From assembly GCA_964035545.1 (NCBI GenBank), contig OZ037765.1, positions 21,575,504 to 21,639,503 on the forward strand: 64,000 bases of DNA. The letters run 5' to 3'. The translations under genes were made by a program, and so were the position numbers. The DNA comes from Bugula neritina. Its lineage: Eukaryota > Animalia > Bryozoa. Positions 2,869 to 37,288 of this stretch are shown in pieces (within the stretch, counting starts at the first letter, position 1; the number at the start of each line of letters is the position of its first letter). The notes below the pieces were generated by a model. It made no database searches and was not told where the DNA came from. It saw nothing but the letters and a program-made list of their open reading frames with translations.

Positions 2869-5800
2869 CTATATAGCAAACAAATTCATAGTTAATAGCT
2901 TAACAGCATTTGATGGGTATATCCCTTCTTTAAATGCAATTCTACCAAAGCACCAACCATCACGGTCTCCTCTGATTTGATAAATAACCTCTCCTAAAAT
3001 AACCAATGTACATAGTTTACTAAACTAAAATAACAATCATTATTAAATCAATTACACACATTATTACAAGTATATGAAAATCAATACCTTTTTTAATATC
3101 TAAATGATTTCTTTGTGTAGCATTGAAGCTAGACACTGCCCTGACATACACATTACTCATGTCATAATGATCCTGATTAACTGAAGGCACATCATCGTCA
3201 TTTGAAGAAGAAGTTACACTTAAAGGAGGCTTCTTAAAAGTAGAGTCAAATGACCTTTTAGGCCGAATGCCCATATGAGCATCTTTAAATTCGCTGTTTC
3301 GAGCTGATGGCCCATTTCTATAACATAGATTAAATGAATTATCAGTACGTCATTTCAAAGATAATCAAAATTGAAATTCTGAAATGTACATATATATTCA
3401 TCTACATAAGAAAGATAAAACCAGAGCTCACAGAGAATAAATAAAATAGATTAAAATGTTGGCGTACTCACAAGCTTTCAGCAAGGGATGGACGTCTAAG
3501 CATAAACTCTTTAGTGGAAACTCTAGCAGTTGAATTAAACTGTTGAGAATCTGACGTGAGATGTTTGAGACGGCTGAATAGAACACCAGGACTTCTTAAC
3601 TGAGATGAGAACAGCCTGCTAGTGGAGGCACCAGATAGAAGCTGTGATCTGATTGGCTCCAAATCAGCATCCTACAGACAGTATAATCAAAGCATGGCTA
3701 TTGTACAGAGACAGTATAACCATTGAAATGCTCCATCAAGATTTGGCACGTGGCAAAGTAGCAGTTTGTGACTGATGATAAACAGTTTTAGCCAAGTGGA
3801 AAAAAAACTTACTTCAAACTTTGGAAAATTCCGAGGCATAGAAGACCCAAATAATTTTGCAAAAGAGTTCAAGTTTTGTTCTGGCTTAGCTACATTGAGA
3901 GGAAATACTGCCTGGCTGTAAATATTGCTTAACCTAAAACAATTGAAAATAAATTGGGATCATTACAAGTAATGAGATCAATAATTATTATAATAATAAA
4001 AAAATACTCAATATACCCAGATGTTTGTGAGCAACAGCTATATGCAACCAAATTGAAGATAAATACATGCTAAGACTCACGGCTCTTTGATGTGGACCTG
4101 TTGATTTACAACCCCAATGTAATCATGAAGACTGTTTAGCAAAGCAGTCAGTCTGTCTGATTCAATTCCTTGGCAGCGATCAAACTCCTCTTTCATACTC
4201 TGCAACACCAAAGCAATTTAAACTCCGTGTAAATGCAGAGCTAAAATTGAATATTAAAGCAGTAAGTGTGCAGCGTGTAGATTATGAAATATTCACCCTT
4301 TTGTAAGTCTCAACAATATTCTCATTGAATGAGCTGAACGCCTTCATGTAATTCAACTTAGCTTGCTCTTTAGCACTGGATAGTGAGTCTCGCTTAGCAT
4401 TGGGTTGGTGTTCAGACACAGCACTCTTCTTTAACTTGCTATTCAGCTGAAGGAAGTTTTTACTCAAATCGAAGTATTTCTACAAATAGTATTGTGAAAC
4501 TAAAGAAAACATAATCCTACAAAACTTTCGTTACCAAAAACAAGTAAAAGAAATGAAGAAAATATTATGCTTCTTTACACAAGTGCTCACATCAGAATGG
4601 TACCTCTTTTTTTAAAAAATGCACCACATATGTAGAAGGTTAAAGAATACATAAAGGGTATCGTTTGAGAATTTGTGCGATTTTTGTGCAATGTAGAATA
4701 TATTTTGATGATACAAAAATGCTATGTAATAGAAGACCTTTGAGCAAACCTCATCCAGTTTCATTAAAAGTGGTAAAATAATGATAAAGTTATTATATGT
4801 GTAAGATTTTGCTTGAGCAGCTTTCTTATGAGAAATGTAGTTTAATACCTGTTGAACTCGAGACTATGAGAATACTAGAATTGCTATTGCTCTTCATACA
4901 TTAAAAGATAGGAGGAATATTGCCAGTCATATACAAAATATGGTGTGAGTAAAGCAAGAATACAAGTGGAACAATACTGAACTAAAACATTAGAGAATTG
5001 GGAAAGTCAGAGTTAGATACATTCAACAATGAAGTAATGATAGCCAAAATCAGTCATCAATACATAATGCATCATTAGATGAAAACAAAAAAACTCGACA
5101 GACAACTGACCAACACCAACTTCAATCGAAACATAAAACAAACAAACCATCAACAAATTTGTTTAGAACTTGATAAGACGACAAAACAAGATACAGTGAA
5201 ACAGAAGCATGTGCCTTTTTCAACTTGTTAAGATGTTCTAGTGCTTTTTTGTAAGGTGCTTGAATAGATCGAAATGTCTCGCGACATTCCTTCACCTCTT
5301 TTAGTTCTTTCTGGAGAGGAACATTGTGGTAATGAGATTTCCTAAACCTATAAAACATGCTCACTAATCATATGAAAATTCAACTAAAATTCCACTGCAA
5401 CAAGTTTGATGAGCGCACAAGAATATGCTTTTTTTCACAAAAAAGCCAATAAAAAAGTTTTAAATGACAGAATAGTGAGAAAAAAGCTACACATTTCAAC
5501 TACACATAATGGTCAAATTTACTAAACTAGAACTAAGAGTGAGTCATGCTTTTCAAGCCTTTGACATGAACAAGTCCTCACTTGTGAATACTCTTTTGAA
5601 TTCCTTCCGAGTGAGTGATTCCAAGACCTGAACTAATCTTAAAATGAATATCTGCTATCTTACGGCCTTCTGTAAGAATACTCTGCCAAATGTCTTCTAT
5701 CTCCCCAAACTCTGGTCCTAAAATTACATGGTAACGCCAGGGAAACTAAAACATGACAAACTCATAAAAATTGAGCCACTTGTCTACATTATTTTTCTTA

Positions 5801-7068
5801 TTTTAGCAAATAGAGTAGAATGAATTTCTGAAGTGTGTGCCACCAAAAGTTATAAAACATAACTAACTTCACTTTAAGTTTAAAATTAAATATAAATTTC
5901 ACACCTATGCCGCAGTGATCCTGTTCAGGAGACAAGTTAAACATAAAACTTCAGGTACAGGACTCTTATTTTAATTGAACTTTATTTCATGTTTAAACTG
6001 ATTGCTATTCAACATAGATATCTGAACTAAAATTATGATTATAACCATTATATTATTTAGTAAATAGCCACTTTGAAAAAGTAATTGTGATAGCAATAAT
6101 ATTGACGAGAATAGATTAAAAACAACTCACAGTTGAAAATTGGTTTGGTTTGACAATAGCAAACTGTAACAATAGTTACTGTTGATAGTTTAATTTTAAT
6201 CAACATGCCAACAATAATAATTAATAACCATAATTATTTGAATGATAACCATTGAGGTTTATTGGTTGAGAATGCAGCTTTTGCTCTTTAGCAATATTAA
6301 CCTATTAGTTGGGAACACAACTGCAGTAGTTTGTGGAACCTGCTTTAATATAAATTCATGCTTAATAAATTTTGTAGACAATTCTGAATCAAAATATTCC
6401 AGCAAAATGCAAACGACTGCAGAATTCACAATTCTATTTATATTTGAAGTTCTTTCCTGCAGATGCGACACTTAAGGTAAACAGTATAAATAGTTAAACA
6501 ACTCAAGTATTTATAAAAAACAATTGTACTCTTGGTGCTAAAAACTAAGTGCATGATCAAAGTAGCCCGTAATCCAAATCTTTTTAATAGTTTTTTTTAA
6601 TATCACAAGCCAGTACAGAGTTTTATATGAAATCACTATGAAGCAATTTCTACAAGCGAAACATTAGGACTATATGAATGAGGTGAACAAAATCAGCATG
6701 ACAGGGCACATATTAAATTATAATCAATATTCTTATTGTGGTACACACCTTGCTTGACTGCAACCGACCACTTTTTATACCAACTTTGAAGTTTATCAGC
6801 ATATCTTCGCTCAATGGCTGCTCGCTCTCCAACCATCAAAAGAAAGTCATCAAGAGATCTGGAATACAAAGTGAGTAAAATAACTTCTAAGTAATAGCAA
6901 TTGTGACAATCTCACAAACCTCCAGAAAAAATTTAAATACCTTTTCCCATTTTCAAGCCTCTTGACTGTAGCATCATATTGACCTTCATCCCAGAATGTT
7001 TTATTTTCAGGAATAGGCAGATACTTGTCGCATGGTATGACAAAATTAAAATAACTCCCACTAGCCAT
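2869..7068 (-). CDS. PACSIN/syndapin-like F-BAR + SH3 protein (divergent), about 10 coding exons
   Basis: N-terminal TFWDEGQYDATVKRLENGK...ERAAIERRYADKLQSW parallels the PACSIN SFWEVGNYKRTVKRIDDG...ERARIEKAYA motif. FGSSMPRNFPKFE ends the F-BAR. The C-terminal SH3 reads VRAVSSF...GEVIYQIRGDRDGWCFGRIAFKEGIYPSNAV, with TAG stop at 2869-2871. Confidence 0.8.
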
Positions 7069-7199
7069 TCGCTTCTCAAGTTATTCTAATAATTTTCTAC
7101 AAAATGCAATATACAAATGTTATTCTGTACAAATTTTAACTAGTTTATTAATCATATTAATGCTCACTTCAGTGGTCAAGTCAAAGTCCACTTCGAACT

Positions 7200-8264
7200 G
7201 TAATTACTAAGTCACAAAATCAGACTTGAGAATTATTATTATAACAATACTATCAATAATAGTATTACTATTACTGTTGAGTGTTGTCTATTACTCAGCA
7301 TTACCAATAGACAACACTCAACAGTAATAGTAATAGTATTAGTGATAGTTATATTTAGAGTTAGTGTTAACGCAAAATAAACTCTAACTATTGTGATAAC
7401 CAATTATTATCTAATATATTTATTAACACTCTAATTACGATTTGCAAGTAGTTCAAATAAGTCTTAAGTTCAAGGGCATTCTAAATGAGTAAGCGAAAAG
7501 AAAAAGCCAGAATCTAGAGGTCTTGAAACTTATCGATATGAACCTGAATATCAATGAGATATGTAAACTTTAAAGCAAAAACCCAAAGCAAATTTGTTTG
7601 TGTGATCATCATAATGATAATTATCATTAAACTTTATGATTAAATATACAGACTGAAACTAAAAAGTAAATTAAAATGAATATGAGTAATTGTAATACTA
7701 ATAACCATTAGCAATAATTTTACTTAAACTAAACCTAATACTTATATTAATGTTATACTTATACTCATACTAATCTCATACTGTTGCATATGCTGTTACT
7801 GTTAATGTTATATAGTTATACTATTACTTAAAGTTAGACTGCAACTGTAAGGCGTAAGCGTATACTATAAGAATATAGTGCACAGTAAGCGATTTAGATT
7901 GTTATGTTTATTGTGATTGTGATAGCAATACTAGCCTTACTACTAGTACTACTACTACTGCTAAGACTACTATTACTACTAGTGCCACTACTAGTAGTAA
8001 TAATATAAAATAAAAATTGCTACTACTACGTCTACTACTAGTACTAGTACTATTAGTAGTACTGGTAGTACTAGATTTAGTAATACTAATAGTAATACTA
8101 ATACTACTAATAGTAATAGTGATAATAATTAAGTTTAAGAATTATTAAAGTATTATTATAAATTACTACAATTATGATTATTTTATTTTCATCATAATCA
8201 TATTCATACTGATAATATAAATATTATTAATACTTCATATAAATTATTAAATAACTATAAGTAT
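7200..8264. repeat. TA-rich cryptic simple-repeat array (TAC/TAA/TAG/TAT triplets); continues at 15759-16010 beyond the retrotransposon
   Basis: Runs such as tactagtactactactactgctaagactactattactact and aatactaatagtaatacta, with many short palindromes. Confidence 0.85.
7263..7335. repeat. Perfect 30-bp inverted repeat with 13-nt spacer
   Basis: tattactattactgttgagtgttgtctatt (7263-7292) is the exact reverse complement of aatagacaacactcaacagtaatagtaata (7306-7335). Confidence 0.95.
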
Positions 8265-8568
8265 TGTTATAATTTTCAGATTAGGGTTGATATGCTATCC
8301 AGAGAGTCTATTTATCTAGTATAGAACTGCACCAGGCTAAGTCGAGTGAACGAGTATATTTTATTCACAACTATACATCATAAAAACACGATACATTATT
8401 TCTAACAAGTTACACATCTAATCTATTTCACACTCTAGCTTCGACTGAGTTAGCAGCGGGAACTACAATTGCTGCTAACTATCAACTACGCTAATTGGCT
8501 ATCCATTGTTCCGGGTCAATTACGCGACCCTACATGTTGTGCTGCTGGTAGTTCCACGAACCACCACA
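8265..8568 (-). repeat. 3' LTR
   Basis: Identical by eye to 15455-15758. Minus-strand AATAAA at 8360-8365. Confidence 0.98.
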
Positions 8569-8579
8569 CCGCCCCCACC
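8569..8579 (-). other. Polypurine tract
   Basis: Minus-strand GGTGGGGGCGG directly abuts the 3' LTR. Confidence 0.85.
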
Positions 8580-8848
8580 AGCAGAAAGCCATCTTTCTGA
8601 TATATATATAAAAAAAACATTCAATAGTAATTGCATACATCAGTGGACAAAAATAATACATAATATACAGGAAGAGACATAATAATACACAGAGTCGTTA
8701 TAACGATCCGTTGCATACAATTGGCCAGCTGTAGATAGACGAGGAATACTAGCTAGCTGTGGTATTAGACAAGGAATAACCTGTCTAGCAGTTAAGCATT
8801 TGCACGAGTTTGGTTCATCACCAAATGTGGAGTATTCTGGGTAGCATA

Positions 8849-9636
8849 CTAGAGTCCTTGTTGGGCACGCCGGTGCTTGGCTTGGCATGTACGCAGTTTC
8901 CGTTTCATACGGCATACGGATCCCTTCAGCTGGAAGAGTCCTGTGGTAGTGTTGAGTAGATCTGGCGCCAGCTGGGTGAACTCTTCTTGTAATCGTAGGA
9001 GGCGTTCTTCTACTGTAGCTAGTCGTACTGGGTCTGGGGACGGTGTCCGTCTGCGGCGTAAGGGTGGACTGGGGGACCTGGTCCGTCTCTTCGCCGGGGT
9101 AGGGGAGATCTCTCCTTCTTCTGGATATGTAGTTTCCTCGGGGGTGTAGGTAATTGGAGGGCGGTCAGACACCAACGGGGATTGTTGGCGGGCGTTGTCT
9201 AACACACGTTGGAACCCCGAGGATAGAACGGCTAGTAGCATGGCCTTCTTTACCAGAGGTCGTATATATGTGAGGAACTCCGGGTACAGCTTGGCGTCGA
9301 CCACATAGTTTTCTCCAGGGAAACAGCCCGCCGCTCTGTGTCTGGTGACGGGGTAGGGGTACACATCATTGTACCCGCAGGGGCAGAAGGTCAGTAGGAG
9401 ATGAGCATTGACGTGTAGTTTAAGGGAGCGGTGAGAGGCGCAATCTTCACCACAGATCTGGCATCTCGTCCGTCCTCTGGACCCCCAGGCTGTTTCTATT
9501 TCTTCTTCGGTTTGTGGAGACACCCACCGCCAACGGCGGCGTAGTGGCTCAGGCCGGTCACCGCTAGCATAGTCCTCCGGATACGGAGCGGGAAGTGTTC
9601 TATCCCGTACCCTGGTTGTAGCGGGTCGAGTGTAAT
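8849..9636 (-). CDS. Retrotransposon ORF3, major exon: C2H2 + C2HC zinc fingers, Arg/Ser-Pro-rich segment, C-terminal coiled coil; not an envelope protein
   Basis: Open frame of about 262 codons with CQICGEDCASHRSLKLHVNAH (C-x2-C-x12-H-x3-H) and CPCGYNDVYPYPVTRHRAAGC. It is preceded by a TACTAAC branch point (9656-9662) and a TTTTTCAG acceptor. Confidence 0.85.
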
Positions 9637-9900
9637 CTGAAAAAGTTTCAACAGTGTTAGTACAGTACACTGCTGTGTTGTCAGCTTGAGCAGCTTGGCA
9701 ACTCCTAATTCAGTTACCTCGTAGAGATTAATGATAGTGAATAGTCAGATAGAACCGTATTGCAATGAGATTATAAAAATCTCTAAGTCAAACTGAGTTC
9801 TTACTACGGTATTTCACTAACCTATCTCCAGCTCGATTGACTCAGTGAGTCGGAGCTGAGCGATGCAATCTAGTTTCGTATTAAGATATAGTTAACTCAC

Positions 9901-9926
9901 CCCACGATCTGTTGTCGTAAGACATA
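9901..9926 (-). CDS. Candidate 26-nt mini-exon supplying the ORF3 start codon (MSYDNRSW)
   Basis: Minus strand reads tttcacatattcag|T ATG TCT TAC GAC AAC AGA TCG TGG G|gtgagt. The phase-1 donor matches the phase-1 acceptor at 9636. Confidence 0.6.
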
Positions 9927-9949
9927 CTGAATATGTGAAATGGTTTGAA

Positions 9950-12900
9950 CTACTGCTTAGAAACACGTCTACTCTTGACTGCATCAGCGTATGAAAAGAT
10001 CGAGCAACGTGGTTGGGGTGCGTGATTAAGACTTTGCGCACCCGGCGGATGAATTTTGTTTCTACTTCCGCCGATACAAAAGTTGATATTTCCGTGGTGT
10101 TGACAACTTCCACATTTGCTCGATTCTTTTCTCGTACGGTTTTCCCCTAGACTTTCATGTGTGCCGCTTTTAACGCAGTCACATACAAAGTCCTTCAAGT
10201 ATGCGGGGGGTTGCCTCGTACGCTGTCCCCTTTCTAGGGGGGGTGACACGCTTGCCGGTTCGTTAGTAGGGGCCTCTAATGGCGTCTCTACTTCACCGTC
10301 AGCAGCCACCTCTTCTTGTTCTCCGGATGGAGCCCCTCCCTCCGTGGGGGTTTGCACTTCCGGAACCGGCTCGGTTTCTGGAAGTGATGGAATTAGACTT
10401 GGCGGTGGCGGACACGCTTCTGTTGACAAAAGCTGCCGCTCCTCTCTCACCAAGTTTTCTTCCCGCGGTATGACCACTTCGTATTCAGGTCCATGCCGCC
10501 GTCGCCCGCGCGTTGTTGTCTGCCTCCTGGGCTCTAACAACGGGGGGGCTTCTCCCACTCCGCCGGGGCTAGCCCAATACGGTTTCAAGCGAGACTCATT
10601 CTGGATAGACACCTGTCCTGAGCGCTCAATCTTGTACGTATGATTGGGCATAGCCTCGACGACCACGTAGGGGCCTACGAACTTAGGCTTCAGCTTATCA
10701 GCCTGTCCGCGGCGCCTACGGTAATTGACCATCCACACCTTATCTCCTCTTTGATAGAGGGGTGGTTCATCGGAATCTTCGTGCCGCACCTTCCACTGCT
10801 GTTGACGCAGTATCTCGTGTGCGGCCTTCATCCGTTCCACTAGTTCACTGGCATACTCGTGGACTGAGTTATCTTGCTCTGGAACGTGATAGGTGAGATG
10901 GTCAGGGACACGAGTCTCTCTCCCGAGCATCAAGAGGTTTGGGGTCTCACCAGTACTGGTGTGTGGGGTGCTACGGTATGCACGCATGACTTGCGGCAAC
11001 ACCGTATCCCATTCCTCTTGACCTCGTCCAAGGAGGAGACTCCGGAGCGCATCACCTAGCATCCGGTTGTTGCGCTCCACCACCCCGTTACCTTGAGGGT
11101 GGTAGGGGGTGGTCCTGCTCTGATTTACTCCCCAGAGGTGGCAAAGGTCGCTCATCAGTTGGGACTGGAATTGAGCGCCTTGATCAGAGTGTATCTGTTC
11201 GGGAAGCCCAAAATAACAGAATACGTGTTGGTCTAGTGCCCTGGCCACTGTTGGGGCTGATGCATCTGGGATAGCCAGAGCATCCGCCCACCTAGTAAAG
11301 TGGTCGGTTAGTACTAGGATCCAATTATTGCCTCTGGGGGTCAGGGGCATGGGTCCGACCAGGTCTACAGCGACTACTTGCCAGGGCCTACCAGCGTATA
11401 GCCTCCGCCGTCCTGCTTCACCAGGGGGGCGGCTATGCTTACTGGCCTGGCAGATCTCACACTGTTTGACTCTGAGCCGGACGTCACGCTCCATCTGCGG
11501 CCAATACCACCGGAGTCGTAATTTGGACATCACTCGCTTGACCCCTGCGTGGGCCTGCTTGTGAGTATCCCAAATCAACTCACGGCGGATGGCTGTGGGG
11601 CAGACTACCCTCTTCCTTTCCGGGTGTCTGCCGCTGGCAGCTAGAGAGATGGTTAGTAACCCATCCTGCCCGATCTGCAGCGAGTCCCAACGCTGACAGT
11701 ATAGCCGGAACTCGGCGCATCCCTGTCTTATGCGTTCCTCGCTGGGTCGTCGCCCTTCCCTTTTGGCTCGGTAGATGTCTGCCACGACTCCAGGCAGCTC
11801 TTCTTGGAGCTTCTTCAGCTCTCGAACATTACCGGCCAGTACAGGGTTGGCGCGGAGGTTTTGTACATCCTCCGGGGACTCATCAACTCTTTGCCTGAGT
11901 TGACCTTGATCCCAGTCAAACGGTGCTCCGTGATGAGCCAGCGTCCCCAACTCGCATCGTGGGGGACCTCCATCCCTCCTCTCGATGTTGAGACACTGTT
12001 TGCAACCTCCGTCAGGTCGGCGACTCATCCCATCCGCATTGCTGTGTCTCTTGCCCGGTCGGTGTTCGATCCGGTACGAGAATTCAGCTAGGATTTCGAG
12101 CCACCGGGCGACCTGACTAGAGGGCTCTGCTCTCCTGCACAACCAGATCAGCGAGGCATGATCCGTACGCAGCCGGAACTTCCTGCCATATAGGTATGGT
12201 CTGGAGTGCTTCACTGACTTGATTACTGCCAGCAGCTCCTTGCGGGTAGTGCAGTAATTTCGTTCAGCGGGAGAGAGAGACTTGCTGTAGTAGGCTACTA
12301 CTACCTCTCGGCCTTCCTGCACTTGCGACAGCACAGCGCCAACATTCTGGTCACTGGCGTCCGTGTCTAGGATGTACTCCAGAGTGGGGTCTGGGTAGGC
12401 CAAGATGGGCGCCGTTAGGAGGCAGCCCTTGAGGCGGTCGAACGCTTCTTGTTCGACTAGAGTCCACTGCCACGTCACTCCCTTTGCGGTAAGCCGGTTT
12501 AACGGCTGGGCTATGCCCGCAAAGTCTGGTATGTATTGCCTGTAATACCCTACCAGCCCCAAGAAAGCCCGGAGTCCGGTCAAGTCTTGAGGGGTGACCC
12601 AGTCTTCTACTGCCCGTACCTTTTCGGGATCCGTTGCCACGCCGTTTCGACCGACAACGTGCCCCAGGTACTTGACCTCCGGCTGCAACAGAGCGCACTT
12701 GGAAGGTTTGAGCTTAAGACCGGCACCTCGGAGTCTCTCGAAAACCTCCTGCAGACGACTGACATGTGTCTCGAAGTCTGGAGAGATTACGATGACATCA
12801 TCGAGGTAGACCAGCAGTGTCTTCCAATGGAGTCCGCTAAGGACTTGTTCCATCAACCTCTGGAAGGTGGCTGGGGCGGAGGTTAACCCGAAGGGCAGCA

Positions 12901-14581
12901 CCTTCCACTTCCACAAACCGTCCCGTGTGATAAACGCCGCTTTCTCCTGGGCGTCGGGACTCAGAGGAACCTGCCAATAGCCGCTTAGCAAGTCTAACGT
13001 ACTGAAGTACTTGCTGCCGGCTAGGGCGTCCAATGACTCGTCAATACGAGGTAGAGGGTAGGCGTCCTGTATGGTTACGCTATTGAGTTTGCGGTAGTCC
13101 ACACAGAACCGCCAACTGCCGTCTTTCTTCCGGACCAGTACGACTGGCGAGCTCCACGCACTATGGGCGGGCTCTATCAGTCCCCGGTCCAGAAGATCCC
13201 GTACTTGTCGGCTAACCTCCTTCTCTTTCTCCGGCCCCAGCCTGCGTGTGGGCTGCCGGACAGGGACTGTCCCTGCAGTCAGCGGTATTTCGTGTCTGAC
13301 AATTCCAGTCAGTCCCACGTCATGCTCTCCGCTGCTGAACACATCACCGTAGTCGCGTAGTAACTTGGCCATAGCCTGGCGCTCTCTGTTACTCGCGCAG
13401 CCGTTACTGGCCGTCTCGTATAACTCCCGGAGATGTGTTGGGACTGCCCCTCGTCCCTGAATAGGGTGTCGAGGGAGTGCCTCTGTCGCATCACCCAGCG
13501 ACGGGCCTACGTCTCCCTCTTGAACAGAGTGAAAACGGCCCAGCATCGACCCAGCCGGGAGCTTGATAGGCTCGGTAAAGGGGTTGACGCACTGCACTAA
13601 GATCTCCCCTTGCTCAGTCAGCTGGTTCAGACTGCTGGCAAGTTGGATCTTTTCGTGCGCGCCTTCAACCACCCCGAGTCCAGAGATCCGGCTACTATTC
13701 ACCCTGCAGTGAATGGTAGCCCGGGAGCGGCCTGGTATGGTACGGTTGCGTACCACTTGCACACCTCCCACTAAAGGGCAGCCGAACTTGTCGACGCAGG
13801 CGAGTTCCCGCCCGGACATCATCATTGCAGATCTGCTAAAATCTATGTGACATCCGTGCCGTTTAAGGAACGGCATCCCGAGGATAGCATCCTCCTTGAG
13901 CTGACTGACGATGAACGTCTCTTGGATCGTTTGATCGCGGACTCGTCCCGTCAGCTCAATTATACCATAGAAGGGAAGGCACGACCCGTCAGCTAGGGTG
14001 CCGTATTCCCCTTCGTATGCTTCCATCTCGCCCCTGACCCTAGCGCTGAGGGTGTCGAAAAGTTGGCGGCTTAAGAGGTTTGTGGTACAGCCCGAATCAA
14101 TGAGAAAAGTAACAGCTTTGCCTTCCAGTTTACCGGGCAAGAAATAGCTGTTCCCATGGGGCTGCACCTGAACTCTCCCTTCAGGCCTTACTCTCGCAGG
14201 GAGTACCTCCCTCGCTTTGGGTCGCGAAGGAGGTCTCTTGGGGCGGTGATGGGTAGGCCTCGGGGGTGCCGAGGCTAGATCCTCAGCTACCTTTGTGTGC
14301 TCCCATCCAGATTCTTGGACTTGCAGCCCTGTGAATCTGTTGTGAAGGGGCATAGAAAAGGCAGCCGCGGGGCGAAGCCCCTTGCTGGTCCGTCGTGGCT
14401 GTTGCCACTGTTGGTTGCCAGTACGCGGTACCCGTCTGGGTGACCTGCGTTTCTTCTTCCCTAGAGGTTTCATCGTCGGCCCGCGGAAGGTGGGAACATC
14501 TGCGGGCCGCGGTAGTTTAACCCCTGATTTAGGAAGGGACAATATCGGCGGAAGTGTCCTTGATTTCCGCACTCCCAGCAA
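9950..14581 (-). CDS. pol: Pol polyprotein (aspartic protease, reverse transcriptase, RNase H, integrase), probably expressed as Gag-Pol by -1 frameshift near 14515
   Basis: Motifs FLIDSGC (PR), WRFCVDYRKLN / LPFGL / YLDD (RT), LDTDAS...ELLAV (RH), H-x3-H...CEIC and VDLVGP...HSDQG...VERNNR (IN). 1543 uninterrupted codons. Confidence 0.98.
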   Translation of the reverse strand: MLGVRKSRTLPPILSLPKSGVKLPRPADVPTFRGPTMKPLGKKKRRSPRRVPRTGNQQWQQPRRTSKGLRPAAAFSMPLHNRFTGLQVQESGWEHTKVAEDLASAPPRPTHHRPKRPPSRPKAREVLPARVRPEGRVQVQPHGNSYFLPGKLEGKAVTFLIDSGCTTNLLSRQLFDTLSARVRGEMEAYEGEYGTLADGSCLPFYGIIELTGRVRDQTIQETFIVSQLKEDAILGMPFLKRHGCHIDFSRSAMMMSGRELACVDKFGCPLVGGVQVVRNRTIPGRSRATIHCRVNSSRISGLGVVEGAHEKIQLASSLNQLTEQGEILVQCVNPFTEPIKLPAGSMLGRFHSVQEGDVGPSLGDATEALPRHPIQGRGAVPTHLRELYETASNGCASNRERQAMAKLLRDYGDVFSSGEHDVGLTGIVRHEIPLTAGTVPVRQPTRRLGPEKEKEVSRQVRDLLDRGLIEPAHSAWSSPVVLVRKKDGSWRFCVDYRKLNSVTIQDAYPLPRIDESLDALAGSKYFSTLDLLSGYWQVPLSPDAQEKAAFITRDGLWKWKVLPFGLTSAPATFQRLMEQVLSGLHWKTLLVYLDDVIVISPDFETHVSRLQEVFERLRGAGLKLKPSKCALLQPEVKYLGHVVGRNGVATDPEKVRAVEDWVTPQDLTGLRAFLGLVGYYRQYIPDFAGIAQPLNRLTAKGVTWQWTLVEQEAFDRLKGCLLTAPILAYPDPTLEYILDTDASDQNVGAVLSQVQEGREVVVAYYSKSLSPAERNYCTTRKELLAVIKSVKHSRPYLYGRKFRLRTDHASLIWLCRRAEPSSQVARWLEILAEFSYRIEHRPGKRHSNADGMSRRPDGGCKQCLNIERRDGGPPRCELGTLAHHGAPFDWDQGQLRQRVDESPEDVQNLRANPVLAGNVRELKKLQEELPGVVADIYRAKREGRRPSEERIRQGCAEFRLYCQRWDSLQIGQDGLLTISLAASGRHPERKRVVCPTAIRRELIWDTHKQAHAGVKRVMSKLRLRWYWPQMERDVRLRVKQCEICQASKHSRPPGEAGRRRLYAGRPWQVVAVDLVGPMPLTPRGNNWILVLTDHFTRWADALAIPDASAPTVARALDQHVFCYFGLPEQIHSDQGAQFQSQLMSDLCHLWGVNQSRTTPYHPQGNGVVERNNRMLGDALRSLLLGRGQEEWDTVLPQVMRAYRSTPHTSTGETPNLLMLGRETRVPDHLTYHVPEQDNSVHEYASELVERMKAAHEILRQQQWKVRHEDSDEPPLYQRGDKVWMVNYRRRRGQADKLKPKFVGPYVVVEAMPNHTYKIERSGQVSIQNESRLKPYWASPGGVGEAPPLLEPRRQTTTRGRRRHGPEYEVVIPREENLVREERQLLSTEACPPPPSLIPSLPETEPVPEVQTPTEGGAPSGEQEEVAADGEVETPLEAPTNEPASVSPPLERGQRTRQPPAYLKDFVCDCVKSGTHESLGENRTRKESSKCGSCQHHGNINFCIGGSRNKIHPPGAQSLNHAPQPRCSIFSYADAVKSRRVSKQ
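14457..14521 (-). other. Predicted -1 ribosomal frameshift signal (G_UUA_AAC plus stem-loop/pseudoknot)
   Basis: Slippery heptamer in the gag frame at 14515-14521, 6-nt spacer, stem GGCCCGC/GCGGGCC, and loop UUCCC complementary to a downstream GGGAA. Pol is in the -1 frame. Confidence 0.8.
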
Positions 14582-15423
14582 AAACTGACTGTTTCTCCCT
14601 GTGGCGGCGCCGATGGCCGCATGGGCTCAGGGGCGGTACTCACTGGGTTTTGTGGTGTCAGTGTTGCTATCAGCTTGGCTAGCATGTCCGTCAGTTGAGT
14701 GACTTTTGATGCCGTCGCCAACTGGGACACGGCAGCCGCGGCGGGGGTTTCCTCCCCTTGTCCCGCGGCCGTGTCTGCGCGGTCTATCTCCACTTGGCGG
14801 GAGCTTCCGCGACTTTTATGCATTTGGTTAGCTAGGAGGTAAGCTTCCCCCTCAGTCAGAGCATCTTCAACGGTGGTGACTCCCCTAGCTAGAAACTGGT
14901 GGTGGAGACCCAGATCGTCGACAGATGCTATGAAAGCGTCGAGGGTGTACCTCTCGCGGTTGACTGGGGGCAAGTCGCTGTACGCGATCTGTGCCAGCTT
15001 CATGACCGCGGCGGCATGCTCCCGCAGCGGGGTGCGGGGATCACGCCGCAACCTCTGTAATCGGGCCCTGGCATCTGTAGCCGAGAGGCCAAAGCGGGCC
15101 CGCAGAGAAGCAAAGATATTATCAATGTCTACGCCCAGCCCATAGGGCTTGGCTTTGTCCATCAATGCCATTCTAAGCTTCAGCAGGGCCACCCTAGGGG
15201 GCCACTGAGCGACGTCCATTACGTCGCTAAACTCTTGAATAAATTGTTCCACCTCCTCTTCACCCGTGAAGGTGGGCGCCTTTAACCTGTAGCGGTCTTC
15301 GGCTAGTTCTCGCGGAACCCTTCGCTCTTCTACTACATGGTTAACAGGCATTGTCTCTACAGCATTGTCTCTACGCTCACCTTCGATTGCCGGTGGTTGA
15401 ATTTCAGCATTGTCAGTCTCCAT
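14470..15423 (-). CDS. gag: Gag (317 aa) with one CCHC zinc knuckle
   Basis: ATG lies just downstream of the PBS. APTFTGEEEVEQFIQEF...W is a capsid-like motif and CWECGNQGHFRRYC is the knuckle. Confidence 0.95.
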   Translation of the reverse strand: METDNAEIQPPAIEGERRDNAVETMPVNHVVEERRVPRELAEDRYRLKAPTFTGEEEVEQFIQEFSDVMDVAQWPPRVALLKLRMALMDKAKPYGLGVDIDNIFASLRARFGLSATDARARLQRLRRDPRTPLREHAAAVMKLAQIAYSDLPPVNRERYTLDAFIASVDDLGLHHQFLARGVTTVEDALTEGEAYLLANQMHKSRGSSRQVEIDRADTAAGQGEETPAAAAVSQLATASKVTQLTDMLAKLIATLTPQNPVSTAPEPMRPSAPPQGETVSFCWECGNQGHFRRYCPFLNQGLNYRGPQMFPPSAGRR

Positions 15424-15435
15424 CTTGGATGCACT

Positions 15436-15453
15436 ATCCCACCGCTGCCACCA
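15436..15453 (-). other. Primer-binding site complementary to the 3' end of tRNA-Leu
   Basis: Minus-strand TGGTGGCAGCGGTGGGAT lies one nt from the 5' LTR. Its complement ATCCCACCGCTGCCA+CCA is the 3' end of animal tRNA-Leu(AAG-type). Confidence 0.88.
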
Positions 15454-15454
15454 C

Positions 15455-15758
15455 TGTTATAATTTTCAGATTAGGGTTGATATGCTATCCAGAGAGTCTA
15501 TTTATCTAGTATAGAACTGCACCAGGCTAAGTCGAGTGAACGAGTATATTTTATTCACAACTATACATCATAAAAACACGATACATTATTTCTAACAAGT
15601 TACACATCTAATCTATTTCACACTCTAGCTTCGACTGAGTTAGCAGCGGGAACTACAATTGCTGCTAACTATCAACTACGCTAATTGGCTATCCATTGTT
15701 CCGGGTCAATTACGCGACCCTACATGTTGTGCTGCTGGTAGTTCCACGAACCACCACA
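15455..15758 (-). repeat. 5' LTR
   Basis: 304-bp copy identical by eye to 8265-8568. Confidence 0.98.
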
Positions 15759-16799
15759 GTATCACTATTACTATAAGTATTACTATTACTATTAGTATTA
15801 GTATTACTATTACTTATAATTTAGTATAAGTATAACATTAACTGTTGAGTATAACTATAAGTATAATAATAATGTTATCATTATGATTAAGTTTAACTAT
15901 AACTTATATTTATAAATATAACTATAAGTCTATAACAGTTATACTATAAGTACTATAAGTATAAGGAGATAATACTTGTATGTGTACTAATATTTCGATT
16001 TGGCTATTGTCATTCAATTAAAAATAGCTCCCATGGTTATCTTGATGATTATGCATTATATTTATTATCATACCATAAGATAAGTGCATAAGTATGAATG
16101 CAGCAGAAGGAGAAGCAAAAACTGACATCATTTAAACTTCGGTGTGCTAAAATATCTCTATTTTTTCTCCCATTATATTTGAGGTTTCAACATAAAAGCT
16201 GCAGCACGGACCTCATTGTGTTAGCGAGTCAAACAAATTTTCTTATGTAATCCTTAACCCATAATCTTATTGAGCATTCTTGACTACAAGACATAATGTA
16301 TTGAAAAATTATATTACCAAAGTCGTAAATAGAGTTTGTACCTCGATCACAGGCTGTACTCCGCGAAAACCGACGTGCAGTAATTCCATCAATGGACGTG
16401 AACGTGGGGTGTTTTGATATTATCATTAGTCACTTAGTGATTATGAAGATAATCACTAACCGCTGAACTGGAGTAAACTGTTTTATTTCAGTGCAGAGAA
16501 CAGGACCAAATCAACATAACATATCATAATGGTTCATTTCAGTTTGCTATTTCAGTATTACTATTTGCCTTGAGTCTTAACAAATAATAATATTGAAATA
16601 ACTTACAGTTACTCTTAGCCCTTAGGCCTGTGAGTGTGGCACTGGCTGAGTGGCTGTGGTCATGGAGTAGCTCTGTAGACGTTGTGAGGTTTTTTAAGTT
16701 TAAGCCTAACAGTAACTTTAAGTGCAAGTTGAAGCCGTGCTCAGCTGATGCTGTAGTGTTACTGTTGCACTTACTTAGTTTATTTGGTAAAATTTGAAA

Positions 16800-30419: not shown

Positions 30420-31780
30420 CAAAAGTATTAGAATACTCATTATAATTATAATGATAACCTTGACTGCTATGACTATTTCAACTATAATTATTATTAGACG
30501 ATTGCTGAGAAACACTGCTTTTATTAATATTACATATATATTACAGATTTTTATTAATATAACTAAGGATAGATATTGAAAAACACATTTTATAACGTAT
30601 TGAGCTTTAGTACACTGTAAGTGTAATAAAATTAAATATATTCAGACATATTGATAAATTTAAGGTAACATGTATTTTATAAACTTCCTAGTTATTCTGT
30701 TACAGCTAAGAATCAAATCAGTATCTTCACTCATAGTCATAGTCATACGGCTTACTTTAGTGTCATAGAGATACCTGTACTAATACTAATACTAATAGGG
30801 GCACTTATACCTACGGTGGTGAATTTATTATAATCAATATTAGTGAATATACTTATACTAATACTTATAGTTATAGTCAGAGTGAATAATTGACTCAGGT
30901 ATTGATTTTAACACTGATTTGCCTGCAGGCTATGAGAAATAGTAATAATAATACTAATGTCTAATAGTAATACTAATAGTAATAAACTAATACTAACAGT
31001 GAGAAATACTAATAGTCATACTCATACTCATAGACCATAGTAAATGTAATACTTATAGTTATACTTATAATAAGATTTAGAGTTAGTCTTATAGTTTAAG
31101 TTAGAACTTCAACTTGAACGTATAAGTTAGAAAGTTAAACAATAATATAAGACTAAGTAAACTTATAGTTATAGTATTAGTTATACAGTAGTTGTTATAC
31201 TTCTACGAATACTAATAGAAGTTATAACAAATCTAATTTAATTAAAATTAAACTTAATCTAATACTTATAGTTATACTTATACTTATAGTTATACTTAAT
31301 CTTATAGTTATAGTTTTATTTTAAAAACTACAATATTGATATAAAATTAAATATTATTATTATTATTATTAATATTAATACTATTACTATTAGTATTACT
31401 ATTACTCAGTATGAGTATTACTATTACTTAGTATTACTATTAGTATTAGTATTAGTATTAGTATTAATATTTAAATAATAAAATTATACTTGAAGTTAAT
31501 AATAATATAATAAATATAATCAACTTCCAGTCCAAGTATTCATTATGATTATCATATTCATATTCAACTTTATTGATATTCATATTGATATTGATATTCA
31601 TATTGTGGTTCGAACTATACTAATACAGTAATACGTAATACTAATAAGTAATACTAATAGTAATACTGAAAGTGAATACAGGAATCCATCCTCATTTTAT
31701 TTTCAAATTAAAAGATTATGTACATTTTCTAATATCAATACTAATAGTAATATTACCGCCAATACTAAGAGTGGAAAGCT
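30420..31780. repeat. TA-rich cryptic simple-repeat array
   Basis: Runs of (acttat/agttat)n, (attagt)n, (actaat)n and (agtcat)n. Confidence 0.85.
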
Positions 31781-32000
31781 TACTAGAAATCTTAGCTGAG
31801 AGTCATCACAAAGTCAGACTGATTACGAAACCGAATAGCAGGAAAAATAGAAAAAAAAATCGGCTTTTTCTATTCTGGTAATAATTAATTTACCTTCAAA
31901 ACCAAATACGTATAGCCTAAGCCACTATTCAAATGTTCGAAAAAAGACCGTTTACAAACGACAATTCACAAGCTGTAAAATGTTCAATGGATGCTTGTAA

Positions 32001-32011
32001 TAATTAGGTCA
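32001..32011 (+). promoter_or_regulatory. RORE/Rev-RE-type nuclear receptor monomer site
   Basis: TAATTAGGTCA fits WAWNTRGGTCA. A second site GAAATAGGTCA lies at 32180-32190. Confidence 0.55.
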
Positions 32012-32018
32012 TTTAAAA

Positions 32019-35000
32019 ATGGATTCTGCTAACGAAGAAGAAACTCAACCAAATCCTCATTCTGGTAAGATTAATTGGCAGTTTTCATTTTGAAATATCG
32101 ATTTACGTTTCACACCAAACATTTGATTGCAAAACAGTATCATACTCTAATTTCAGGGTAAATTAAAATACCCAATGCTGAAATAGGTCAATGGCGACCT
32201 GAAAGATTATTTTGTATGTCAAGCAATGACACCAAAACTCAAATTTGTCAATGCTATGGGGTTAGTAGCATCTACTGCTCACCGTATGATTGACAAGTAT
32301 AAATGGCAGTTTTAGTACTAATTGTAGTTTTAGCGTTGCCCAAGTAATAATAATAATAATTTTTTGACTTAAACTTGAAGTAGTTGAACATCAACATGAA
32401 TACTGAAAGTGAATAGTCATACTCATAGTCATAGTCATAGTGATAGTCATAGTGAACTTGCACTTGCAGTCTTCAAGTTGATGTTCAACTAGTACTACTA
32501 GGACTTCAACTATTGACAGTGACTATTACTATTACTATTAGTACTAGTATTAGTTGAAGGCATCCGTGTTCTTGTTGTTATCACTATGCTATTCTTATTC
32601 TAATACTTGTATTCGCACTTATACTTATACTTATAGTTATAGTAATACTATAGCTATAGTAATACTAATAGTTATATTCATATTGATTATTCTCATTTAT
32701 AGTAATTCTTATTTACATTATGATTACTTATTAGTATTACTATTAACGTATTAGTGTTACTACTAGTACTAGTAATGCTTATACTTATTGCATTTCGGAA
32801 TTGCCCGTTTACTGTTTAGGCCATTAATAAAAATAATGAGTATGACTATGACTAACTCCAAGTATAATGCTTAAAAGAGCAGTAATTGGAGTCTTGTAAT
32901 AATATTTGTATTAAAAATTAAAGAATAAATTTACTATTCATAATTTTTTCAGTCCTATTATAATTATATAATATCATTATGTTCTATGCAACTGTTGGTT
33001 GGCATCCTGCGTAATTGTTTAGCGTGCCTGCTTGCCAGCCAGAGGTCTGGTTCGAATTCCGGTGGGGGCAATTATTTTACAAGCTATTTCGGCTTTGTCT
33101 TGTGGAAGTACTCTCAGGGAGTTGACTGGCGAGTTGAGCCCATAAACTGACAGAGTACGTGGGGGCCAGTGCAGTTCTGGAGAGAACTGGGTGGAATGTT
33201 GTTTGGTATCCCAAAGCCCCTGTAGCGTAATTGGTTAGTGCACCTGCTTGCAAGCCGGAGGTCTGTGATTCGAATCCCAGTAGGGGCAATTATTTTACAG
33301 CAACTGATCAACCTATTCTTTTGAATTGTCATAAAATGCCTGAACTTGTTGTTTATATTTTCGTTAGAGTCCCAGGTTCTCGATGGAGATAATGAGCAAA
33401 TTACGTTTGTTGAAGCATCTGTCGCACCCAGCAATGTAGACCTGACTACAAATTTCCTTCAAGTCACCAGAGCCACCATCTCTGAAACTATTGCTGGAGA
33501 GGATGGAACTTCAACAAATGTTCAGGAGATCATACCATCAGCCAACAGTTTATCTCCGACAGTTACTATAACTGAACACACATTCACTTCAAATAATGTT
33601 CTGGGGGTAGAGCCGTCTACAGTTCAGTCAGAAGAACGATGCTTGGTCTGTAGTGATAAGGCTTCCGGTCTCCATTATGGTGTTCTAGCTTGTGAAGGGT
33701 GCAAGGTGTGGACAAAATTTGAATATCAAATTTTCAGTTCATGTTATCTATGAAAATTGATTTGTTTAAGTCTCATAATAAGAGCATTAGGTATATTTGC
33801 CCTATCCAAGTTATGTGCACACCAACAATTTTGAGTCATCTTTTTTATTTAGGGTTTCTTCCGACGAGCCTTGCAAGACATTGGAGACCCGTCTAGGCGG
33901 AGATGTTATTACAATAAAAATTGTGAAATCACCATTTCTAGCAGAAACAGGTGCCAGTTTTGTCGACTTCAGAAATGCTTAGCTCTTGGCATGTCCAGAG
34001 GAGGTAAATTTACACTTCCATCAGAATCTATTCAGTTGACTTCAAATGAACCAGATTTTAGATATAAAATTGTACTATTGTATATTCTGATTGTAGCTGC
34101 CAAGCTGGGACGGAGATCAAGGAAAATGAAGGCTACGATAGCAGATGCTTGTAAGTCTATAGAAGATACACAAACTGCCCAAGCATTACACGGGTTACTC
34201 AGTTTGAAAGCAGAAAACCATGGGGGTGTCATAACTTTCACTCCTACAACAGCATCAGTGGATGTTAGTTCGTTCCCTGCAACCCAGACGTCTAATGTAT
34301 CGTTAGATATGGGTGACATTACATTTTCTTCCCTTGCACACTCTACTAGTCTACCAACTACTAGTCAAACTGACACTTTGTCTGCTTCTAAAGTAACCAG
34401 TCTGTCTTTACCCGCTGCCAGTACTTCAGTGGCTACCGGCTCTGCAGACGATGACGATGACGATCAACAAGTTGGACAAGAAAACCCATCAGATTCTGAT
34501 GTTTTCAAACACATGATGGACAGACTGGCTCAAGCTCGAGTCTGTAACAGTGAAGTGTTCAATGTAAGTTGTTGATTTTATCACAAATTAAAGTATCTAG
34601 ACGGGGTGCCTTAAACTTTTGCTGTTTCATATAGCTTAGTTTGTGAAGTACGTACTGCTTGCTGCAAAAACAATCTCTCATAGGCCTCTGCTAGATGTCA
34701 ATTTTGACTGAAGAAAAAGATTCACTCTTGAAATTTATTTAAGTAATTGATGTGCAACAGAAATTTTCTTCAAGTTTTTTATCATTTCTGCTAGATCTTT
34801 GTAAGTTTAACAGATCATGCTTGTTAGCTCGAATGAATATCTTTCTAGTGGCGATACTTAAAATTGACTAGCATCATTTTTACTGGATAGTTGCAACACA
34901 CTGTACTTTTAGAATTGAAAAATAATAGCAAGTAGTAATTAGAAGTTATTGATAATTTTGAAAACGAGCACAAAGTTTTAGAAACTAGAATAATAGTTAG

Positions 35001-37288
35001 ACCAGTTATAGCGAGAGGTTAAGTCGGATAGTTGTTGGAAGAAGGAAAATTCAAAAGTGCTTAAAAATTTGTTGATGAATAATTTTGTTCCTAAATTCAG
35101 TTTTAACTTTCATATTACGGTACTTTTGGAAAGGTTGTGTGAATTCATTTTATTAGCATTTAATATATTTTTATGGTGATGTTGTACACTGTTACATAGA
35201 GGAATCGTAACCGCCTGAAAAACTCGGAACAGAAGAAAAATAAAATGACACAGAGACAAGCAGATACTATTAGTTTGCTCAAGATATCGCACTTGGCGGG
35301 TATTGAGGGTGCGTCTGGCTCTGGAACCAAATTCCTGATTGTCAACTCGAACAAACTGCCTTTGAACCAACAGGTATGTTGGTGTGTTGTGGAATCAATA
35401 AACTCATATTTCGAAAACAATAGTACTCAACTAAGCAATAAACTGATGTTCTACGGTTAATATTCCGCTAACCTCCATGTTTAAAAAGATCAAGCCTCTG
35501 TGCTTTATACTGACAAAAGTCAACTTAGTTTTTTCAGGTTTAGTCGTCAATGGTTGACATCTAAATTTCTAAAGAAATGACAAAGCTGATGTGACTGTAT
35601 TAAAAGTGCTCACTCACTAGCTATATGTATGTTTTAGCTTTGGTAGATTGAATGCTGTTTTTCCTTGGGTTACCAATGTGCAGTAGTGTTGATTGTATGT
35701 TATGTGTTTTAGACGTACATCACAACACCTTCCGGTGAAGTTATTGACATGTCAAATGTGCAGATTATCAATGCTACTGCTGCTACTCCTATCAGAGTTT
35801 CAAACTCATCATCTAATAAAATAATAATACCTAATTCGGGCATGTCTAGTGGCACGTCTAACTCTATACTCATACACGGTGCTGCCTCAGCCACTGAGAA
35901 GTTAGCACCTTCAGCTGACAGCTCACTGAATGCTGGGGAACACGCAATCTACAGAAGCCCCTTGAAGAAGCGACCTTATAGAGAACCAGATCTTATAGAA
36001 GATGGACACATGAAGAGAGTCCATCTTGATGACAATGACGTTGTATTGGAACAGCACCAGGTGGTGCTGGTAGATAGTGGTGAGCAGCACGCTACGGATG
36101 TGCAAGCTGTTAACATGGCCGACGTGGCTACTACTGTGTACGATGCCTATATAGACACAGTTCAGTTCACATTCAACAACACTATGACTATGCGACAGAA
36201 TATAACTGAAAAGTTAGTATGTCCGACTTCGTCGACTCATCTCCCTGATCATCTGGCGGCAGCATGCTGGAAGGCATACGAAACTCGGTCTAATGAAGCC
36301 ATCACTGATGTCGTGAATTTTGCTAAGCGAATTCCGGGTTTTCCAGCTCTAGAAACCGATGATCAGATTATTCTTATCAAAGGAGGCTCATTTGAGGTTA
36401 GTTTCTACTCTTCATGATGTTTAATCTAATCACTATTTAAAACATTGGTCTGCTATGTATCATCAAGTCTGGAATTGTAGCTTATTTTTTACTCTTACTA
36501 GTCTGTACCCTTTAATAAGCAATTTCACTTCAGTAAGGTGCATATGGATGTCTGTTTAATGTTGTCACCCTTTAAAATATGTATATTGTATCTGCTATTT
36601 TATTACAGGTGGCCTGTGTGATGCAGGCCTCATTTGTTGATTCTGACAGAGAAATCATGCTACTGAGTGGTATAGATGCTGCGTACACCAAACAGCAACT
36701 ACGCAACAGTTTTCTGATGGGCGCTACTTTTGTTGATCTGCTGTTCAATTTTGCTTCTCGGTTCAGCAGTTTTCACTTGACGGACGTAGAGACAGCTCTG
36801 TTCTGTGCGCTGATGCTGATTCGCCCTGGTAAGCATCCTATTTCTCTGTAATTTGTGAGCCGTGCTGGGCATTGTCTATAAGTTATTCTAACTATAGAAA
36901 TGAGTTTTTTTATAAATTTAAATGATGTTTAAATTGTTTTGATGCTATATTAAAACTAAAAATCTTCACCTTGTTATGAGACACCCATTTACTAATTCTA
37001 ATGGTACAATTGTACATTTTTCAAAGAAATGAAGTTGTGCTTTCAGATAGAGGTGGGTTGACCAACAGGGAGAAAGTGAACAAACTGCAAGAGATACTTA
37101 TACAGGCTTTACAGAACCAAATTGACATTAACCACAGATCTGAATCAGGGTTGTTTCCTAAAGTACTAATGATGGTGTCTAATCTTCGAGAATTAAATGG
37201 TGAACAACGTAGAATGCTAAATAATTTAAAAGGTCAGATAGAATTTTCTGAAGGACTTCTGGCTGAGATATTTGATTTGGCAGATTAA
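32019..37288 (+). CDS. Nuclear receptor, subfamily 1 (NR1CDEF/E75/ROR-related orphan), 8 coding exons
   Basis: Exons 32019-32064, 33368-33705, 33853-34003, 34097-34563, 35200-35373, 35713-36396, 36609-36828 and 37047-37288. DBD: [27 protein letters not shown]...[22 protein letters not shown] signature: [22 protein letters not shown]-terminus: LLAEIFD. Confidence 0.93.
32290..32980. repeat. TA-rich cryptic simple-repeat array in receptor intron 1, including an imperfect inverted repeat (32381-32413 / 32459-32491)
   Basis: Runs of (agtcat)n, (acttat)n and tagtactagta. tagttgaacatcaacatgaatactg pairs with cagtcttcaagttgatgttcaacta. Confidence 0.85.
32994..33296 (+). repeat. Repeat carrying two tandem tRNA-like modules (about 33006-33070 degenerate; 33216-33288 near-complete cloverleaf), each followed by attatttt
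   Basis: GCCCCTG...TAGGGGCA acceptor stem, D-arm TAGCGTAATTGGTTAGTGC, CCTGC-TTGCAA-GCCGG arm with a 6-nt loop, and T-loop TTCGAATC. Confidence 0.7.

Follow-up and report, generated by a model that had tools for sequence, protein, structure and literature searches.

Retrotransposons without an env gene are usually treated as gag-pol elements only. A Ty3/Gypsy element of the bryozoan Bugula neritina, found in a window of 64,000 nt (assembly GCA_964035545.1, contig OZ037765.1, positions 21,575,504 to 21,639,503), carries a third open reading frame (ORF3) in the env position, which raises the question of how this frame is expressed and what its product does for the element. The original prediction described ORF3 as a zinc-finger accessory gene encoding a nuclear regulator. 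Coordinates below are those of the window.

The element is intact, 7.5 kb long, and lies on the minus strand of an animal genome. Its pol order (PR-RT-RNase H-integrase), direct TG...CA LTRs, target-site duplication, primer-binding site, polypurine tract and CCHC gag are those of Ty3/Gypsy (Metaviridae) elements. The insertion is very recent and intact, with 0 mismatches between its LTRs. The following parts were recognized:

15759-15762 and 8261-8264, flanking the LTRs: target-site duplication GTAT, 4 nt
15455..15758, minus strand: 5′ LTR, 304 nt, TG...CA, 0 mismatches to the 3′ LTR
15436..15453, minus strand: primer-binding site (TGG...), by sequence, presumably of the tRNA-Leu type
14470..15423, minus strand: gag, 317 aa, with a CCHC knuckle near the C-terminal end (zf-CCHC E 0.15)
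9950..14626, minus strand: pol frame without a stop, PR-RT-RNase H-integrase
8569..8579, minus strand: G-rich polypurine tract, by sequence
8265..8568, minus strand: 3′ LTR, 304 nt, TG...CA

Gag had 129 homologues at E ≤ 1e-20. Contigs from run X2 (6081 contigs) covered all 30 bins of the element, including ORF3, in every identity class, so many diverged copies exist. The gag stop overlaps a pol-frame ATG (ATGA, 14473-14470, minus strand), and a frameshift-like run, GGGGTTAAAC, lies near the gag end (14524-14515, minus strand); Pol could come from a −1 frameshift or from stop-restart. One homologue, P0077, is probably an internally deleted copy: its 404 aa join a Gag that shares 87% identity with that of the window to an RNase H region. 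The element is embedded in an AT-rich TAG/TAA-type simple-repeat tract (7900-8140, 15760-15900), comparable tracts recur at 31-33 kb (30900-32800), and an inverted repeat (44 nt, 95%) lies at 7249-7349. Host-gene exons at 3000-7080 (minus strand), presumably of the F-BAR/PACSIN type, start ~1.2 kb downstream from the 3′ LTR and run in the same orientation as the element; exons of a nuclear hormone receptor gene, with zf-C4 and ligand-binding domains, are at 33325-36417 (plus strand). The host genes near the element are split by introns.

ORF3 is a 286-codon stop-to-stop frame (9709-8849, minus strand) in the same sense as gag and pol, flanked by the pol stop (9950) and the polypurine tract, as had been predicted; in the other five frames over 8569-9949, the longest open stretch was 47-174 codons. 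The predicted extent from 9670 did not hold, as the codon there is GTG, which is not a eukaryotic start, and no ATG precedes the fingers. In-frame ATGs occur only at 9241 and 8908, both downstream of both fingers, and homology to other proteins starts at 9636, for which reasons 9709-9637 was assigned to a predicted intron. The finger motifs C-x2-C-x12-H-x3-H and C-x-C-x12-H-x4-C, the basic segment KRRTRSPSPPLRRRRTPSP and the heptad C-terminus of the original prediction were all present in the translation, arranged as follows:

8849..9636, minus strand: ORF3 main exon; the predicted spliced product has 276 aa
9182..9565, minus strand: predicted folded two-zinc domain of 128 residues, comprising a Trp helix, finger 1, finger 2, a VD strand and three helices
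9401..9463, minus strand: finger 1, C-x2-C-x12-H-x3-H, ligands kept in 88, 94, 92 and 93 of 95 sequences
9323..9385, minus strand: finger 2, C-x-C-x12-H-x4-C (x3 to x8 in relatives), with the ligands retained in 94, 93, 87 and 66 of 95 sequences
9035..9091, minus strand: basic Ser/Thr-Pro tract, subfamily-specific, within a variable Pro-rich linker
8864..9022, minus strand: coiled coil of six heptads that continues as a basic helical tail, with conserved a/d positions

The Ser/Thr-Pro tract cannot bear the weight that had been placed on it as an RS/SP region: its columns were filled in only 3 of 53 aligned sequences (the window's own, P0003 and P0006). Identification of the product as an SR/RS-domain protein was rejected given this narrow distribution, a single RS dipeptide in the linker and no RRM match in ORF3. 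Neither a signal peptide nor a membrane anchor was detected by hydropathy in the window's protein, as predicted. The best 19-residue hydropathy of the window protein was 1.24 and the mean of the leader −0.74 (hydropathy only); values above 1.6 occurred in 5 of the 53 sequences, all in a lysine-containing helix of the folded domain.

With no usable ATG of its own, ORF3 probably draws its start from gag. The predicted message is built from these parts:

15381..15423, minus strand: predicted coding exon 1, 43 nt from the gag ATG (14 codons plus 1 base)
15375..15383, minus strand: predicted splice donor AAG/GTGAGC, first intron base 15380, phase 1
9637..9662, minus strand: predicted branch point TACTAAC (9662-9656), followed by the predicted acceptor TTTTTCAG, which would end the intron at 9637

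The predicted intron is 5.7 kb and contains nearly all of gag-pol. The donor had the top score among 432 GT sites in the element. The acceptor is the first AG, 19 nt past TACTAAC, and is in frame with the donor, the exon resuming with AT at 9636. On a crude pyrimidine-based score, 9637 fell outside the top 15 of 594 AG sites; the acceptor is supported by its branch motif, its phase and the homologous proteins, not by the pyrimidine score. The branch-point motif sits where loop meets stem in a predicted hairpin of 9 bp (9649-9675), which could weaken the acceptor and leave part of the RNA unspliced. A second-best donor-like site, GGG/GTGAGT, lies at 9900 (minus strand) between the pol stop and the acceptor, and its use could excise 264 nt from the 3′ portion of the long RNA.

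The predicted joint was matched by one protein, P0023 (one of 65, on a 5320-nt contig, with the junction read at the amino-acid level), whose N-terminal 14 residues are identical to the N-terminus of the Gag homologue P0127 and are followed by ORF3 from the acceptor residue. Its leader was matched at 11 or more of 14 positions by 22 of 120 Gag homologues. P0023 may represent a transcript, a re-integrated spliced copy or a chance deletion, the last being unlikely since a deletion would need to strike both sites in frame. In murine leukemia virus (MLV), as described in the accessible part of PMC10496198, the SD′ RNA (SDARE), which specifies the accessory regulator P50, arises by splicing and can in turn be copied like a retroelement, and by analogy SDARE-like copying is a possible origin of the P0023 contig; P50 differs, according to the same text, in being gammaretroviral and built from Gag and integrase parts, with no separate zinc-finger ORF.

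Both predicted splice sites have matching signatures in other homologues. Among the 120 Gag homologues listed, 40 have a full leader, and 39 of these have [EKR]-[GS]-E at the donor, while leader lengths and sequences vary. Gly or Ser at this position fits a splice donor, because a GT at codon positions 2-3 (GGT or AGT) permits both; Asp was found there in P0187, one of the 40, and in P0078, outside the 40. At the acceptor, 13 ORF3 homologues extend upstream of the junction, and the preceding residue is Ser in 10 and Leu in 1, consistent with an acceptor since TCAG or TTAG would encode them; the remaining two are P0023 and one distant protein. In run X1 (a metatranscriptome, share 0.19), no contig spanned either splice site, and joint 15381/9636 was not among the 15 listed of 105 joints in run X2. 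The splice is strongly inferred from P0023 and the conserved site signatures, and the ORF3 product likely comes from a message joining gag codons 1-14 to the exon behind pol. Splicing from within gag does not by itself imply an export factor; env genes are also spliced (PMC12992720, accessible text).

Searching 5.8 billion proteins yielded 65 matches to ORF3, the window's own included; the 64 others were 46-88% identical. Both zinc sites were kept in these 64 and in about 70 distant homologues. In 53 aligned rows, the coil and the basic tail had pairwise identities of 0.82 and 0.76, the two fingers 0.71 and 0.65, and the linker 0.34, the coiled coil and Arg/Lys helical tail being the most conserved part, and 12 of 13 heptad a/d positions were hydrophobic in at least 96% of rows. 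Sister families showed only an indirect link to gag: of ORF3 matches on contigs of at least 5900 nt, 3 of 12 had a Gag match on a contig of equal length, a significant excess (null 0.06, with the cut chosen post hoc); in these three pairs, identity to the window's proteins was 55-57% for ORF3 and 59-66% for Gag. Over all matches there were 4 such pairs against a null mean of 1.35 and maximum of 4, which is not significant. Among the 40 differences shown of 577 in run X2, all 3 in ORF3 and 18 of 29 in pol were synonymous, too few for a rate. Alignment of ORF3 with metagenome contigs confirmed none of 314 pattern matches, alignment with viral contigs gave no related locus, an integrase query and an integrase DNA pattern for related loci gave no match, and a search for ORF3 within longer fusion proteins gave none, which is weak evidence. 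The homologues support ORF3 as an accessory gene conserved in a Gypsy family rather than a single capture event. Its conservation in 64 close homologues and its lack of envelope features agree with the predicted non-envelope accessory gene.

The fingers themselves were not free-standing; the motifs are present, but both lie within one folded domain of ~128 residues, modeled with pLDDT 94.2 and pTM 0.87 (95 sequences). The full-length model was less certain (pLDDT 61 overall), with a single helix at residues 209-261, so that the product is predicted to combine a compact two-zinc fold with a long C-terminal helix. Pfam gave only sub-threshold C2H2 matches, in at most 9 of the 95 members, Foldseek found no match at E ≤ 0.001 in PDB or BFVD, and the best VIA-align Z was 3.8. 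In the ESM Atlas, the domain fell in unnamed clusters at 0.95-0.96 that carry no taxa, and the full protein was under 0.9. The modeled domain is without a Pfam family or clear fold match, which does not in itself prove a new fold. Finger 1 is a beta-beta-alpha finger with four conserved ligands (Pfam match below cut-off), and its helix carries Ser/Thr and three basic positions in most of the 95 sequences. A classical C2H2 array was considered and rejected: the five-residue aromatic linker is not of the TGEKP type, the second site is C-x-C...H...C, and both sites belong to one 128-residue domain.

Searching 1.84 billion representatives with a profile yielded 131 matches. The distant members share the zinc domain at 18-40% identity, with the two-finger pattern in 60 of 72, and many repeat the layout of domain, Pro/basic linker and C-terminal coil; of those with a long tail, 26 of 34 have a basic patch and 13 of 34 have heptads, on a crude score with no null. 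Among 30 proteins looked up, the only species names were those of Watersipora subatra and Bugula neritina gene models. These models (P0206/P0315, P0255, P0319 and P0320) carry the domain, which is duplicated in two of them, and the locus tags of the two Bugula models are neighbors. They may be host-kept copies, the source of a capture or mis-annotated elements; in a quick domain tree, 47 of 86 inner branches were open, and host-to-element and element-to-host transfer were not separable.

Small regulators made from spliced messages are familiar from retroviruses, in HIV Rev, HTLV Rex, HERV-K Rec and foamy-virus Tas. Rev-type proteins have an Arg-rich helix and oligomerize, and they are not known to have a zinc-finger pair. 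The assumption that third ORFs are normally env was overstated, since non-env ORF3s are known, among them CERV of Cer1 (PMC10309623) and GDSL, DEDDy and coiled-coil proteins of bdelloid rotifers (PMC5408684), to judge from the accessible text of both papers. Extra ORFs in the env slot are also described in the accessible text on plants (PMC7264820), rotifers (PMC5408684) and nematodes. Like ORF3, the bdelloid ORF3s are family-specific and include coiled-coil types; they are, however, GDSL esterases, DEDDy exonucleases and transmembrane or coiled-coil proteins, and the word "zinc" is absent from the main text (PMC5408684). "Zinc finger" is likewise absent from the accessible text of a survey of metazoan env-carrying elements (PMC13524379), and PMC12801592 gave nothing further. 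The closest counterpart in kind that we found is CERV of Cer1, a Ty3/Gypsy element of C. elegans, which is required for export of genomic RNA (PMC10309623, accessible text). Both are non-env ORFs placed after pol and before the 3′ LTR that share the Gag N-terminus through splicing (here deduced from P0023), and both have a Cys-rich finger, a leucine zipper or coiled coil, a basic signal and a Ser-Pro site. As described there, CERV has 517 aa and 5 exons, with domains H, M and a GTPase-like G and perhaps a C4 finger, whereas the ORF3 product would have 276 aa, 2 predicted exons, a C2H2 plus C2HC domain and a C-terminal coil; the comparison was made with CERV's description. No GTPase-like domain was present in the ORF3 models, and neither a sequence link nor a fold link to CERV was seen in this comparison.

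We are far more confident that the product is some kind of non-envelope regulator under selection than of either of two specific roles, in RNA export or in transcription. The anatomy fits the predicted nuclear, nucleic-acid-binding regulator; the specific role is a proposal. Our first choice, held with somewhat less than even confidence, is a nuclear CERV/Rev-like regulator of the element's unspliced RNA. The element must export an RNA that holds a long intron with strong sites, and its fully spliced RNA would encode a protein that combines a zinc module with a coil and an Arg-rich helix; the need for export, this anatomy and the CERV precedent together led to the proposal. The ORF3 protein would self-associate, bind the element's own RNA in the nucleus and help unspliced genomic RNA to escape splicing or leave the nucleus. 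Nuclear location, oligomerization, binding to its own RNA and the export role are proposed by analogy only.

RNA folding was compared with dinucleotide shuffles. The predicted intron (9637-15380) had a mean z of −2.44 (56 windows) and was better folded over most of its length, against −0.83 (11 windows) for the ORF3 exon, 3′ UTR and LTR (8265-9636); the difference was significant in non-overlapping windows (Mann-Whitney p 0.005 and 0.011), with codon effects uncontrolled. The pol-ORF3 spacer had a z of −3.0, no more structured than much of gag-pol. No single response element stood out in the intron in folding windows, and Rfam gave no match. A leucine-rich export-signal pattern occurred in 36 of 53 rows, compared with 55% of shuffles, its common match lying inside finger 1, so a conserved export-signal motif was not supported in these rows. 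Neither an export signal nor a response element was found for ORF3, an apparent difference from the Rev-type proteins. These negative results and the lack of a homology link to CERV count against the export reading, as does the fact that the only structural echoes of the ORF3 domain are DNA-binding C2H2 pairs.

Those echoes are among the grounds for a somewhat less favored reading that follows close behind, in which ORF3 would be a dimeric, DNA-binding protein that transactivates the element's own LTR or protects it from silencing, in the manner of foamy-virus Tas or MLV P50. Model residues 25-83 superposed weakly on the tandem DNA-binding pairs of Kaiso (Z 3.6, rmsd 3.0 over 57) and SALL4 (Z 3.4), and profiles matched HIC2, SALL3, TZAP and ZBTB20 (E 9e-6 to 7e-5); a Z under 4, however, indicates only the common finger fold, and here the fingers are packed in a larger domain without a TGEKP-type linker. 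The kept basic helix of finger 1, the coiled coil and the basic tail would suit such a factor, as would the precedent of P50, an accessory protein made by splicing, which transregulates its promoter (PMC10496198, accessible text). Against it, no acidic activation domain is conserved, and no repeated or palindromic site stands out in the LTR, which has only short repeats in two copies and a single inverted pair of 10 nt.

We consider it unlikely that ORF3, instead of reading a specific sequence, counters host silencing or RNA processing by contacting proteins (piRNA, chromatin or splicing factors). Zinc modules and coiled coils commonly serve as interaction surfaces, the linker varies fast (identity 0.34), and the gene models of two bryozoans with one or two domain copies suggest that hosts may use or mimic the domain; yet the high conservation of domain and coil is unlike an arms-race interface.

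Still less probable is a particle or transfer protein replacing env, such as a structural coil or Gag partner. ORF3 occupies the env position and has the Gag leader in common with Gag and a long coiled coil, and in the Drosophila idefix subclade of errantiviruses the env, also a third ORF, is expressed from a subgenomic RNA spliced from within gag (PMC12992720, accessible text), as predicted here. Errantivirus Env-F, however, has a signal peptide, furin site, fusion peptide and membrane anchor according to that text, whereas ORF3 has neither signal peptide nor anchor; zinc fingers with a basic helix and the lack of a match among viral models also speak against this role. A captured host exon carried without benefit is very improbable: related domains do occur in annotated bryozoan gene models, but the frames are open at 46-88% identity in many subfamilies, with identity close to Gag's, conservation of ligands and heptads is patterned, splice signatures are kept, and 3 of 3 listed X2 differences in ORF3 are synonymous (a tiny sample).

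The kind of gene has precedent in Cer1 CERV, and the domain family itself was not found in print in literature searches, in line with the original prediction, which recognized no described family with this ORF; Repbase, Dfam, GyDB, subscription papers or supplements may hold a description. Tentatively, the unnamed two-zinc family may mark an overlooked, broad class of "complex" invertebrate Gypsy elements that encode, on a spliced message, a Rev-like export switch of their own, independent of CERV and of Rev/Rex, with re-integrated spliced copies and host-kept copies in bryozoans; we regard so wide a reading as doubtful. For ORF3s in the env slot, position alone is no ground for annotation as env. 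CERV is the closest studied accessory export factor that we found in a Gypsy element. With a second, unrelated family, for which there are a confident domain model, an intact parent element and exact predicted splice sites, repeated Rev- or Tas-like self-regulation in these elements becomes testable.
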